From a virus (taxonomy: Duplodnaviria > Caudoviricetes), in the IMG/VR virus record IMGVR_UViG_3300027983_002389: a DNA stretch of 64,000 nt. One strand, 5' to 3'. Positions 2,506 through 9,512 of the stretch are shown piece by piece. Position numbers and translations under genes: made by a program. Position 1 is the stretch's first letter, and the number at the start of each line of letters is the position of its first letter. Under the pieces are notes generated by a model. That model saw only the letters and a program-made list of their open reading frames with translations, searched no databases and had not been told where the DNA came from.

Positions 2506-3138
2506 ATGATTCAGCATTTGCGACTTTCCGGTGATCTCAAATTTGGACAGTACAAGGGAATATCTTGTGCTGTCCACCTTCAAGTTGACATTCACGAAGA
2601 CGATGAGTGGGCCGAGCCGGACCCCAACTACAATCCAGCCAACTACATCGATGGCGTTCGTGTCACTGGCGAGTTTTATTTTGACACTTCACCACTTGGT
2701 TGGAACGATAAGCATCCGGTTGAACCCAACGCCATTGGTGAATTGTTTGTTCGTGATGGCGAGGAAAGTTCCAAGTTGAATATCCTTGTCACAGAGAAGT
2801 CTGGTGAGTCTGATCTTATTCCAAAGAAACTGAAACGCTATTTTTGGCAGTTCTTCGTTGTCGGTAAGCCCTCTTGGGATAAACTCAAGATATTTCCAGA
2901 GAACTACCGAGGCGCAAACATGAACCGTCTATATGCTTGCACCGACTTTCGAGGTTATTGGCCGGTTGGAGTCGCTTCTGTTATTGTTGCCACCGATAAA
3001 CGTGAGGCTAGACGATTGCTCAATCAGAAACTCGAAGAGGCAGGCATCCCAATTGAAAGTGGCGTCGATTTCAATTTGACTGAAATCAATCTTCAAGATA
3101 AAGGCGCTGTTATCCTCAATAATGGCGACTGGAAATAG
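2506..3138 (+). CDS. hypothetical protein, probably fusion of two small genes (internal ATG 2920)
   Basis: 210-aa ORF with internal MNRLYACTDF start. Confidence 0.65.
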   Translation: MIQHLRLSGDLKFGQYKGISCAVHLQVDIHEDDEWAEPDPNYNPANYIDGVRVTGEFYFDTSPLGWNDKHPVEPNAIGELFVRDGEESSKLNILVTEKSGESDLIPKKLKRYFWQFFVVGKPSWDKLKIFPENYRGANMNRLYACTDFRGYWPVGVASVIVATDKREARRLLNQKLEEAGIPIESGVDFNLTEINLQDKGAVILNNGDWK

Positions 3139-3224: not shown

Positions 3225-3307
3225 GTTCTTTAATCTAAGGAATTCCCAATGAGTAGAGCGGCGAACTCTAAATTTGCTGGTTGTGGGTTCGATTCCCATC
3301 GGGAACG
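3225..3307 (+). tRNA. degenerate tRNA with CUA anticodon (amber suppressor-like, 5' half damaged)
   Basis: anticodon arm gcgaa-CTCTAAA-tttgc (CTA 3268-3270), T arm gtggg-TTCGATT-cccat, 3' acceptor cgggaac; 5' acceptor/D stem scrambled. Confidence 0.65.
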
Positions 3308-3312
3308 CTTTA

Positions 3313-3383
3313 GCTCCGTTGGTATAGAGGTTGTGCCGGGAACTCTAAATTCCCAGAGGCAGGTTCAAGTCCTGTACGGAGCA
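3313..3383 (+). tRNA. amber suppressor tRNA (anticodon CUA)
   Basis: acceptor GCTCCGT/ACGGAGC, D stem gtat/gtgc, anticodon arm gggaa-CTCTAAA-ttccc (CTA 3345-3347), T arm gcagg-TTCAAGT-cctgt, discriminator A, no encoded CCA. Confidence 0.9.
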
Positions 3384-3401: not shown

Positions 3402-3773
3402 ATGCAAGTAAATGTAAACGGCAAATCGTTCAATGTTCGTGATGGTGCCAATATCAGCATTACCAATAACGTCTTGTACGTTGATGGTCAAGAATATGTT
3501 GGCGATGGCTACGATTCCAAAGAATTCAAAATCGAGATAACTGGTGGCGTTGCCAATGTCAAAGTCGAGCGTGGAAGCGTAGTTGTTCACGGTGACGCAG
3601 GACCAGTCAATGCTGGTGGTAATGTCACCTGTGGCAACATATTTGGTGGGATTGATGCTGGTGGTAATGTCACCTGTGGCAATGTTGCTAATACAATTGA
3701 TGCTGGTGGCAATATTACCTGTGGCTCGGTCGGTGGCAATGTTGTCGCCGGTGGCAATGTTCATCACCAGTAG
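3402..3773 (+). CDS. beta-solenoid repeat protein (AGGNVTCGN repeats)
   Basis: tandem 16-aa Gly-rich repeats; AAGGTG RBS. Confidence 0.7.
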   Translation: MQVNVNGKSFNVRDGANISITNNVLYVDGQEYVGDGYDSKEFKIEITGGVANVKVERGSVVVHGDAGPVNAGGNVTCGNIFGGIDAGGNVTCGNVANTIDAGGNITCGSVGGNVVAGGNVHHQ

Positions 3774-4404: not shown

Positions 4405-4433
4405 TTTACAAAAACCTAGTTTCGTGGTAGATT
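4405..4433 (+). promoter_or_regulatory. sigma70-type promoter (class A)
   Basis: TTTACA-N17-TAGATT. Confidence 0.7.
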
Positions 4434-7917: not shown

Positions 7918-7946
7918 TTTACAAAGCCGAAAACCGATGGTAGAAT
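7918..7946 (+). promoter_or_regulatory. sigma70-type promoter (class A) driving Pth2-like gene
   Basis: TTTACA-N17-TAGAAT. Confidence 0.8.
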
Positions 7947-8001
7947 GATTGCAGTAAAGAATAGATAACTCGAATTAACCCTCAAATTTTGGAGATTGAC
8001 C

Positions 8002-8460
8002 ATGACTCTTTAGGTATCAGCCCCGACCCGTAAAAGCCACGTTTACATTTTTGTACGTCGTGACCTACCGCCTGCACAGATTGTTGTGCAGGCTTCGCAC
8101 GCTGCTTTTGAAGCAGCCTCTCTTCATACCCCTGAACTCGACCACCCGCACATCGTCTTACTTGGTTTTCGTGACCAAAGAGAACTTGAGCGTGCGCTTC
8201 GGAGAGTTCAATCTTCGGGGTTTCAGGTCTGCCCATTTTTCGAGGCCGACCGTGGTGACGAACTTACTGCTTTCGCCACCCAGCCCATTTCTAAATCTCA
8301 GCGTTCGTTTTTTCGCAGATATAACTGCTTGAGCGACGATTTGCTGTTCTCTGGATTCACAAAGGGCAAATCAAAAAATATATCCTCAGCCGAAGGTCCG
8401 TCCATTGTGGACGCTGATCCCGGAGAGGGTGCGAAACAATTACAGGAAGCATATACATGA
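8002..8460 (+). CDS. peptidyl-tRNA hydrolase type 2 (Pth2)-like protein with in-frame TAG at codon 4
   Basis: GGAG RBS 7991, ATG ACT CTT TAG then VSAPTRKSHVYIFVRRDLPPAQIVVQASHAAFEA...IVLLG...FFEADRGDELTAFA, matching the Pth2 pattern Y.+VR.DL....Q..HA. Confidence 0.8.
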
Positions 8461-8672
8461 CAGAACCATATAGGCATATTCACGTCTCTACATTTGAGGC
8501 ATTCTTCAAGAGTGAAGACTGGCGAAGGAATTGGATCGCCACCAATCGTCCAGAGAAAGAATTAGAGGTTCATGATAAACGAATGTCCGTGACGAAAAGA
8601 GAAAGAAATTCAGGGAACGATTTCCGTTCACGGCAATTCTCCAAGGGGCATATCCAGAACACGATTTTGTGA
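8457..8672 (+). CDS. small hypothetical protein
   Basis: 71-aa ORF coupled to Pth2 stop. Confidence 0.5.
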   Translation: MTEPYRHIHVSTFEAFFKSEDWRRNWIATNRPEKELEVHDKRMSVTKRERNSGNDFRSRQFSKGHIQNTIL

Positions 8673-8717
8673 GTCGTTGGTGTTGGCAGTCGTTGGTGTT
8701 GGCAGAACATTGGTCCG

Positions 8718-9512
8718 ATGCAATGTGAAGAGTGCCATGAATCGTCATCGGAATATCCCGGTTGTCCACTGGTACTAGCAACCGAGTATATCCAAACAGG
8801 CTGGTATTTAACCAATACTGGCAAGCGGGTGTATTGGTCCAATAAGGCTTACATCGAAGAGAAGGTGCCAAAACACAGCCACGAGGGAACGTGGATTGCT
8901 TTCTGGTTAGGGAAGACCGGATACGACTATGGTTTAAGTGAGTATTACTTTCAGAATGAATCAGATCGGGATAGGTTTCTCGCCGCAACCCCGATCTTTA
9001 CCCTTGGCGAGAAGTACGAAAAGGAAAATGATATGACGACAATGACCGCAGAAAAGGCCGTTCACCAAAGCAAATGGGGACACCACCCCATCAGCCGTGA
9101 GGCGAGCCAGAAGCTCCGTTTCATCAATGGAGTTTATGCAAAGGCCCAGCACTTGGCTGGTGCTTGGGAGCGTTGGGAACGTAAATTGCCTGAGAACCGT
9201 GTGGTGAGAAGGGCAGTGAAGGACGACAAAGGAATGAAGATCGGCACAGAGATCGTCAAGGATGCCGCTGGCAATCCTGTGGCGTGGCTTGAACCGGGAA
9301 TCTGCCCTTTGTTCCACGAGAAGGTTCCTGGCCACATTAAGTATGGTAGCTATGTCCGTGGCGTTGCCAAGGATAATGGCTTCGGCGACAAGATTCTCTT
9401 TGCCTCTCGTCAGGCACGGACTCCTCAGCCGACCCCGGAAGAAGTTCTGTCCTTCCCCTTCACTGAGGAAGAGATTGACCGTCTTTATGAGACGGTCAAG
9501 GCTTGGGAATAG
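8718..9512 (+). CDS. hypothetical protein, likely two fused genes (internal RBS+ATG ~9033)
   Basis: 264-aa ORF; AAGGA before MTTMTAEK. Confidence 0.7.
   Translation: MQCEECHESSSEYPGCPLVLATEYIQTGWYLTNTGKRVYWSNKAYIEEKVPKHSHEGTWIAFWLGKTGYDYGLSEYYFQNESDRDRFLAATPIFTLGEKYEKENDMTTMTAEKAVHQSKWGHHPISREASQKLRFINGVYAKAQHLAGAWERWERKLPENRVVRRAVKDDKGMKIGTEIVKDAAGNPVAWLEPGICPLFHEKVPGHIKYGSYVRGVAKDNGFGDKILFASRQARTPQPTPEEVLSFPFTEEEIDRLYETVKAWE

Follow-up and report, generated by a model that had tools for sequence, protein, structure and literature searches.

The locus raises the question of how a gene whose fourth codon is a stop codon can give an intact protein. It lies in a stretch of 64,000 nucleotides (nt) of viral DNA (Caudoviricetes; IMG/VR record IMGVR_UViG_3300027983_002389), which is called the window here. 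The gene for a protein resembling peptidyl-tRNA hydrolase 2 (the pth2-like gene) begins with ATG ACT CTT TAG. The frame after the TAG at 8011-8013 is open until the TGA at 8458-8460, and the full product has 152 amino acids. We consider it likely that the translation of this gene is programmed and depends on a suppressor tRNA of the phage, a jumbo or mega phage with the standard genetic code. The occurrence of readthrough, the identity of the inserted residue and the purpose of the gate are inferred from the sequences and their comparison. The features of the gene are as follows.

7918-7946, + strand: sigma-70-like promoter TTTACA-N17-TAGAAT with a TG-extended -10 element, the best sigma-70-type match in the region
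7991-7994, + strand: Shine-Dalgarno (SD) sequence GGAG, 7 nt before the ATG at 8002; an SD precedes the leader ATG in all relatives
8002-8013, + strand: leader ATG ACT CTT TAG, with the amber codon as codon 4 at 8011-8013, followed by G
8014-8331, + strand: residues 5-11 as a short linker of variable sequence, followed from 8035 by residues 12-110, which form the Pth2-fold core and include the invariant first strand
8332-8460, + strand: disordered acidic C-terminal tail and TGA stop

An initial annotation of this DNA had described the promoter, the GGAG, the leader and the open frame to 8460, and the sequence is as claimed there. The first in-frame ATG, GTG or TTG past the TAG is the GTG at 8086, 24 codons on. 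A start at GTG 8086 would result in the loss of the family-invariant strand with Tyr15, Phe17, Val18, Arg19, Asp21 and Leu22. As this strand 1 sits between the stop and the first canonical start, the intact protein should need readthrough of the TAG. The initial annotation had also seen no start codon between the TAG and the first conserved strand, which is correct, and had concluded that the intact protein needs amber readthrough, which the comparative evidence supports (invariant strand 1 and no alternative start).

Conservation of the early stop

The TAG at 8011-8013 is identical in three Joint Genome Institute (JGI) assemblies (L009-L011) and in an unrelated estuary contig of 2022, which is identical to the window from 8006 to 8655. 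A glacier-metagenome contig has the leader ATG ACT TAG GTA, which is one codon shorter and keeps the stop. In this check against sequencing error, contigs, i.e. independent assemblies, were used. They agree at 8011-8013, and thus the sequencing error considered in the initial annotation is not the source of the TAG.

About 27 lineages with identities of 35-90% retain a stop at codon 3-5, and the neighbouring codons vary. The 340-kilobase (kb) IMG/VR relative G001 (90% protein identity) has ATG ACT CAC TAG GTA, in which the codon before the stop differs from that of the window. Relatives of the window lineage were compared down to 56% identity (G001, L005, L015, L033, L034, L036, L012, L013 and L007). 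No match to the GenBank phages was obtained by megablast using 5 kb of the window. By tblastn, homologues with 31-43% identity were detected in the GenBank phages, and the matches start directly past the position of the stop. Many of these homologues are unannotated or annotated in a truncated form. The 5' ends of homologues were inspected after tblastn, as the initial annotation had proposed, and the arrangement of ribosome-binding site, ATG, short stretch and TAG proved to be conserved. The leaders are listed below, first those of the window lineage and then those of the phages in GenBank.

ATG AGT CAC TAG: L015
ATG ACT CAT TAG: L033, L034 and L007
ATG GAC CAT CTC TAG: L012
ATG ACA TAG: L013
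ATG TTC TAG: L036
ATG GCA CAA TAG: Pectobacterium phage CBB and Cronobacter phage GAP32
ATG GCT CAC TAG: Xanthomonas phage XbC2 and Erwinia phage Kaldavass
ATG TCT CAC TAG: Yersinia phage fHe-Yen9-03
ATG ACT TAG: Acinetobacter phage ME3
ATG TTG TAG: Ralstonia phage RsoM2USA
ATG CTG TAG: Salmonella phage Arash
ATG ACT CAC TAG: uncultured LR756511
ATG AAG TAG: uncultured LR756500
ATG AAG TAG: Stenotrophomonas phage CM1, heading a fused HD-like and Pth2 open reading frame (ORF)
ATG AAG AAG TAG: Xanthomonas phage Xoo-sp13, heading a fused HD-like and Pth2 ORF; an ATG is present 4 codons past the leader TAG

A profile of the family was searched against 1.84 billion cluster representatives, and 1,970 members were found at E<=1e-3 and 695 at E<=1e-10. 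Three clusters whose gene calls begin inside strand 1 were sampled, and ATG-x-TAG is located directly upstream in all three. In an alignment of 20 members, in which the TAG was treated as a residue, 24 columns are invariant, including Tyr15, Phe17, Val18, Arg19, Asp21 and Leu22. According to these comparisons, the early stop is a conserved feature, and a nonsense mutation private to this phage does not account for it. In every lineage, a purine follows the leader stop. Amber suppression is reportedly better with a 3' purine, as Bossi and also Miller and Albertini are said to have found.

In the Mycobacterium phage ScoobyDoobyDoo (L058), the sequence GTG TAG GTG AAC is located at 568-576 of the locus, and the annotated peptidyl-tRNA hydrolase begins at the second GTG. 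A tRNA with the anticodon CUA, tRNA(CUA), is located at 1111-1184 of this locus, 180 nt downstream of the gene. By this locus, the pairing of a Pth2-like gene with tRNA(CUA) extends to actinobacteriophages.

Instead of being read through, the leader might act as a start-stop element or minimal upstream ORF, with reinitiation at a non-canonical codon just past the stop, for which the suppressor tRNA would be dispensable. In its layout (SD, ATG, 2-4 codons and stop), the leader resembles a minimal upstream ORF, and one lineage has TAA instead of TAG. The leader of the mycobacteriophage offers a GTG directly past the stop, and Xoo-sp13 offers its ATG 4 codons on. However, most lineages have no ATG, GTG or TTG between the stop and strand 1, and the codon after the stop varies (GTA, GTT, ATT, AAT, AAC or ACC). 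Reinitiation does not require that the mini-ORF is in frame with the body, yet it is in frame in every one of the about 27 lineages. Moreover, reinitiation leaves unexplained the co-occurrence of tRNA(CUA), the Gln variants at the stop position, the second TAG before the tail and the TAG at codon 47 of a partner gene, all of which are described below. We judge reinitiation to be very unlikely, and suppressor-dependent readthrough is preferred.

The tRNA(CUA) genes

The tRNA features of the window and their promoter are as follows.

3313-3383, + strand: intact tRNA(CUA) of 71 nt (type A), the anticodon loop of which is CUCUAAA; called by ARAGORN, 50.4 bits by Rfam
about 3236-3312, + strand: decayed copy of a 74-nt tRNA(CUA) (type B), 22.7 bits by Rfam, not called by ARAGORN
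2471-2499, + strand: nearest upstream promoter, of the class TTTACA-N17-GGTAGAAT, found by pattern scan

The tRNA at 3313-3383 is presumed to be an amber suppressor. The decayed copy covers only the positions 10-63 of the Rfam tRNA model, the gathering score of which is 29 bits. The alignment shows a 7-nt deletion at its 5' acceptor/D junction, whereas type B is intact in G001 and L015. The initial annotation had counted two CUA tRNA genes. One of them is intact, and the other is this decayed copy.

The promoter at 2471-2499 probably drives the gene at 2506-3138 and the tRNA or tRNAs behind it. Their co-transcription is suggested since no other promoter of the class is present before 4405. The class, TTTACA-N16-18-(G)GTAnAAT, gave 14 exact matches in the pattern scan of the window, all on the + strand, against 0.1 expected. 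The sites include those at 2471, 7918, 10799, 20329, 23915, 37269, 53079 and 59793, and also 4405-4433. The class probably represents one temporal set of transcription units read by the host RNA polymerase. The TTTACA and the -10 element of the pth2-like promoter are unchanged in 8 relatives.

Comparison of the tRNA among 8 relatives shows compensatory changes at 15 of the 23 cloverleaf pairs, and the anticodon loop is conserved. The stems covary in this manner, and the tRNA(CUA) is, on this comparison, under selection. The co-occurrence of the amber leader with tRNA(CUA), a check that the initial annotation had suggested, was found in 18 of the 18 TAG-leader lineages with enough flanking DNA. 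These are the window, G001, L003/L005, L012, L015, L033, L034, L036, CBB, fHe-Yen9-03, ME3, LR756511, RsoM2USA, Arash, LR756500, GAP32, CM1 and Xoo-sp13. Two tRNA(CUA) genes each are present in G001, L015 and L034. In ME3, the tRNA(CUA) is annotated 450 nt upstream of the pth2-like gene, and a further tRNA(CUA) is located 300 nt upstream in the sampled cluster L087. Across the lineages, the distance between the tRNA(CUA) and the gene is 0.3-13 kb. G001 has 52 tRNAs, nearly all of which are located in an array at about 73-101 kb (L016-L032). The two CUA tRNAs of G001 are about 80 kb from the array and 5 kb from the pth2-like gene. As a separate observation, CM1 has a candidate tRNA(UUA) beside its tRNA(CUA).

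Two lineages have acquired an ATG of their own. In L037/L038, an HNH homing-endonuclease ORF (L037:6252-6827, - strand) is inserted between a relic leader, ATG AGT CAC TAG GTA, and the body of the gene. The body has gained an SD and an ATG of its own, and no tRNA(CUA) is present at the syntenic site. This looks like a natural event of un-gating. In the Klebsiella phage RaK2, the gene has its own ATG three codons past a relic CAT TAG GTA, and no canonical CUA tRNA was found. RaK2 carries an atypical tRNA-like element at L052:5541-5616 (195541-195616 of the record), which scores 30.4 bits by Rfam and has an 11-nt anticodon loop, ATGTGTATCTA, containing CTA.

The sequence-level signs of programmed, gene-specific readthrough are present at this locus: the stop is conserved, the coding sequence after it is conserved, there is no alternative start, and a decoding agent is encoded in the same genomes.

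Termination may also be leaky in its own right, so that the early UAG is read by near-cognate tRNAs of the host or escapes RF1, and the phage tRNA(CUA) serves another purpose. Termination on very short nascent chains is inefficient, as is known from minigenes and peptidyl-tRNA drop-off, which speaks for this explanation. The TAG terminators of the phage genes lack adaptation to a strong suppressor, and the tRNA, at 0.3-13 kb from the gene, is not always adjacent to it. Against this stand the co-occurrence without exception among the 18 lineages, and the two lineages with their own ATG, one of which lacks the tRNA at the syntenic site and the other a canonical form of it. Furthermore, the 340 kb of G001 and the 64 kb of the window yielded no further client of the tRNA, and the authors of the XacN1 study likewise found no client for its two CUA tRNAs (PMC5852040). 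Leaky termination thus appears very improbable, to about the same degree as reinitiation, in comparison with decoding by the phage tRNA.

The genetic code of the phages

In the window, TAG ends 19 of the 92 ORFs. The coding sequence amounts to 52,320 nt under code 11 and 52,305 nt with TAG as sense. In G001, 94 of the 440 ORFs (about 21%) end with TAG, and the coding density is 0.86 under code 11 and 0.89 with TAG as sense. This gain is no better than that of the TGA or TAA controls. The complete genomes of the cultured phages CBB, GAP32, ME3 and Arash are deposited with standard-code annotation of the coding sequences in the regions inspected. Recoding to code 15 was considered as a candidate and rejected for the window and the 340 kb of G001: TAG as sense gives no coding gain there and TAG is not avoided as a terminator, and of the expected signs only the tRNA(CUA) is present. 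The statement of the initial annotation that this is not genome-wide code 15 is borne out by the terminators and by the absence of a coding gain in the window.

Other clients of the tRNA were sought in the same sequences. According to the coding-potential test, neither the window nor G001 has a mid-gene TAG with coding-like flanks on both sides and without a nearby restart. In the window, the pth2-like gene is the sole case in which an SD, an ATG, 1-8 codons and a TAG precede a long ORF without a nearby restart. In the scan of G001 for the leader pattern, TAG leaders were no more frequent than the TGA and TAA controls, and a second client could not be made out convincingly. The pth2-like gene is therefore the sole convincing amber-leader gene in the 340 kb of G001 and the 64 kb of the window.

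These data bear on a third explanation, partial recoding to code 15, in which TAG would stand for Gln in a block of genes, such as late genes, outside the examined sequence and the TAG of the pth2-like gene would be one of many. Mixed-coding phages with suppressor tRNAs are known (bioRxiv 10.1101/2021.08.26.457843; PMC13037316), and the examined sequence comprises 64 kb of the approximately 460-kb genome of the window and the 340 kb of G001, which is estimated to be 69% complete. However, the code-11 density of G001, the share of its ORFs ended by TAG, the lack of a mid-gene TAG with coding-like flanks in it, and the annotation of the four cultured phages with the standard code are at variance with such a block. 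In addition, a stop fixed at codon 3-5 across relatives with 35% identity is unlike the scattered positions of recoding. Partial recoding is accordingly the least probable of the three explanations by a small step, and has very little to recommend it over gene-specific suppression.

A pseudogene, whether by private nonsense mutation or by assembly error, is effectively refuted by the comparative data: a neighbouring gene is truly broken (4-nt deletion and 16-nt duplication), but the independent assemblies are identical, the same stop occurs in dozens of diverged lineages, and the ORF downstream of the TAG is intact with its 24 invariant columns.

Several observations weigh against suppressor-dependent translation. 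L008 and L090, two independent assemblies of one lineage with a GC content of 30%, have the leader ATG CAT TAA ACT (L008:115-123; L090 at about 3683-3691). The suppression model predicts a UAA-reading tRNA in this lineage, the longest contig of which breaks off within the DUF179 gene and does not reach the expected tRNA site. The type A tRNA of the window shows at most 0.67 similarity to any of about 340 phage tRNAs, and its amino acid is not assignable from its sequence. RaK2 is not a fully clean negative control, because the loop of its tRNA-like element contains CTA. The share of the genomes covered, given above, counts here as well. The remaining points concern the TAGs that end phage genes. 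There are no back-up stops nearby past these TAGs in the phage genes; the median distance to the next TAA or TGA is 24 codons, against 18-21 for the other genes (p = 0.84). The +4 base of the terminal TAGs is often G, as at the leader TAG. Useful suppression would have to spare about 21% of the phage proteins from extension. These facts on the terminal TAGs caution against a strong, global suppressor.

The Pth2-fold protein, its partner and known systems

The window protein scores 16.7 bits against Pfam PTH2 (PF01981) with an E value of 0.0085, which is below the gathering score of 23 bits. The fused form of Xoo-sp13, a distant member, passes with 29.5 bits. In PHROGs, the window protein falls into families of unknown function. 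In the AlphaFold model, the core residues 12-110 have a predicted local distance difference test (pLDDT) score of about 90, and the acidic tail is disordered. In the Foldseek search of the PDB, the 14 best matches are all Pth2 structures (probability 0.98-1.0; target-normalised TM-score 0.51-0.71), and the Pth2 matches are MJ0051, AF2095, PH1539, TA0108, Sulfolobus solfataricus Pth2 and human Bit1. The family profile gave no significant Pth2 match among the PDB sequences (E 0.7-1.1). Because of this, it is the fold comparison alone that ties the family to the Pth2 structures of the PDB. According to the models, the window protein has a Pth2 fold, and it is a candidate for the enzyme. Of the earlier designation as Pth2-like, the fold is thus retained, and the Pfam PTH2 score does not reach the gathering threshold.

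The residues Gln26, Gln30, His33, Glu37, His48, Glu81 and Thr89 are invariant in the family, and Asp83 is nearly so. The conserved RxDL...Q..HA and T.F.T stretches appear similar to Pth2 motifs. In characterised Pth2 enzymes, the catalytic residues are reportedly a Lys that follows strand 1 and an Asp ahead of the TxxxT segment, according to work on S. solfataricus. In the phage family, the loop behind strand 1, which is expected to carry the Lys, is shorter than in Pth2.

The residue inserted at the leader TAG would most likely be Gln, and Lys is possible. Rare members with a sense codon have Gln at this site (MTHQV, MTHQI, MLRHQV and MLQV). In the E. coli amber suppressors, the CUA anticodon alone tends to attract the glutaminyl- or lysyl-tRNA synthetase. 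Both facts favour Gln, and the pull of the anticodon also makes Lys possible. According to the similarity to the about 340 phage tRNAs, type B is nearest to Lys(CUU), and for one distant CUA tRNA the closest is Gln(CUG).

Further in-frame amber codons were observed in relatives. The AAG at 8362-8364 (Lys121) aligns with a second in-frame TAG in G001, L006, L015 and L037. In these four relatives, the second TAG precedes a conserved tail. Whereas the codon at that site stands for Lys in the window, it stands for Gln in other relatives. The pth2-like gene is followed, with an overlap, by a phrog_14850 gene in ME3, Arash, CBB, GAP32, fHe-Yen9-03 and L036. The phrog_14850 protein has an HD-like FHDxGKP motif and a weak match to Pfam HD. 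In CM1 and Xoo-sp13, the HD-like and Pth2 parts are fused, and the Pth2 part is the C-terminal half. The phrog_14850 gene has its own in-frame TAG at codon 47 (ELDTG TAG GD; 1062-1064 of the locus) in five cultured phages, CBB (L039), GAP32 (L061), fHe-Yen9-03 (L041), XbC2 (L056) and Kaldavass (L062). Because of this TAG, the gene is annotated in GenBank as two small ORFs or is partly unannotated. The window lineage lacks the phrog_14850 partner.

The proposed mechanism is as follows. The host-type promoter at 7918-7946 would make the mRNA, and ribosomes would start at the ATG at 8002 and meet the UAG at codon 4. If RF1 wins, only a tripeptide would be made, at negligible cost. Once the phage tRNA(CUA) of 3313-3383 has been made, matured and charged, the UAG would be decoded and the Pth2-fold protein of 152 amino acids produced. 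The overlapping downstream cistron would probably be co-translated. As the preferred rationale, the gate would tie a tRNA-end-processing enzyme to the tRNA programme of the phage or to the suppressor itself. Since the host tRNAs read every sense codon, UAG decoding would be the sole read-out that is specific to the phage tRNAs. The interpretation of the initial annotation as a whole is partly supported; its core, an amber-gated and suppressor-dependent gene outside code 15, is backed by the comparative evidence. Its further proposal, in which the tripeptide ORF would be a minigene that favours drop-off within a self-regulating switch responsive to RF1, is conjectural.

A wider proposal, which we hold to be rather doubtful, is that of a closed circuit with no further client, made up of the tRNA(CUA), the Pth2-fold gene behind its amber codon and, in other phages, the HD-like partner with its own TAG. 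The circuit could take two forms. In one, the enzymes would deacylate or trim the suppressor tRNA, and this negative feedback would keep amber suppression at a low set-point. In the other, the suppressor would be a phage-specific reporter tRNA, by which the pair of tRNA-end-servicing enzymes is dosed to the pool of about 50 tRNAs. Either form, if true, would be a natural orthogonal tRNA/stop-codon switch that is widespread in standard-code jumbo phages.

Phage-borne tRNA(CUA) that decodes in-frame UAG, probably as Gln, is known from the recoded code 15 phages (crAss-like and Lak phages; bioRxiv 10.1101/2021.08.26.457843; PMC9523058). In those phages as in the present case, the host uses UAG as a stop, and control over when certain phage proteins are made has been proposed. 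The recoded phages have many TAG-bearing genes (structural and lysis genes), a low code-11 density and a depletion of TAG as a terminator, whereas none of these is seen here. The visible clients here are only one Pth2-fold gene and, elsewhere, its HD-like partner, and the stop is fixed at codon 3-5.

The closest parallel in gene content is the standard-code jumbo phage XacN1, which has two CUA tRNAs and a Pth gene, and whose authors found no target genes (PMC5852040). XacN1, known here from its paper, shares the standard code, the large tRNA set, the tRNA(CUA) and the peptidyl-tRNA hydrolase gene. That study looked only beyond terminal amber codons, whereas the target proposed here has its amber codon at the start of the gene and is truncated or skipped by gene callers.

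Other cases of recoding share single features with this locus. In prfB (RF2), an early in-frame stop (UGA) likewise gates a gene of the translation-factor type by how the stop is decoded. There, a +1 frameshift is used and the gene senses its own product, whereas the present gene would be read without a change of frame, with a dedicated tRNA as the proposed effector. In the Q-beta A1 protein (UGA) and the gag-pol of murine leukaemia virus (UAG), a conserved stop is likewise decoded part of the time, which yields a functional protein of greater length, and the second TAG before the C-terminal tail in the relatives closely resembles these cases. In both of them, host tRNAs act and a functional protein is extended at its C-terminus, whereas the leader stop is placed ahead of the entire protein and the tRNA is encoded by the virus. 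The lambda bar minigenes also consist of an SD and an ORF of 2-4 codons and have a thematic link to peptidyl-tRNA hydrolase. However, they stand alone, with no Pth gene joined to them in frame, and their toxicity is confined to conditions of limiting Pth. The archaeal and eukaryotic Pth2 proteins (PF01981; PDB 2zv3, 3erj, 1xty and 1q7s) have the same alpha/beta fold (Foldseek probability 1.0; TM-score 0.6-0.7). In contrast to them, the phage protein is below the Pfam gathering score, has the shorter loop after strand 1, and is fused to or followed by an HD-like protein elsewhere.

In the full-text literature searched, no account was found of a phage Pth2-like gene with an amber codon at its beginning, in agreement with the initial annotation, which knew of none. 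What is new is that a phage suppressor tRNA would act in a gene-specific manner in a genome with the standard code. The locus would provide a concrete, conserved target for the orphan amber-suppressor tRNAs of standard-code jumbo phages. It would also link suppressor tRNAs to tRNA-end metabolism by way of the Pth2 fold and the HD-like partner. The protein family (at least 695 clusters at 50% identity) appears to be systematically mis-annotated as truncated, split or skipped genes, in RefSeq phages as well. The locus would be a natural single-gene orthogonal tRNA/stop-codon switch, and cultured phage-host pairs exist for ME3, Arash, CBB, GAP32 and RsoM2USA. In evolution, such a gene may represent an intermediate on the way from the standard code to the full reassignment of a stop codon.

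The pth2-like gene is followed by a second gene and a terminator.

8457-9512, + strand: downstream cistron, the ATG of which overlaps the stop of the pth2-like gene (ATGA); one ORF of about 345 amino acids in G001, L005, L033 and L015
9610-9642, + strand: strong hairpin resembling an intrinsic terminator, with 13 pairs and a T-run, which ends the two-gene unit

No Pfam or PHROG family was found for the downstream cistron. In the window, it is split into 8457-8672 and 8718-9512. The breaks are a 4-nt deletion near 8586, where the relatives have CCGA, and a 16-nt tandem duplication at 8673-8704, in which GTCGTTGGTGTTGGCA is present twice.

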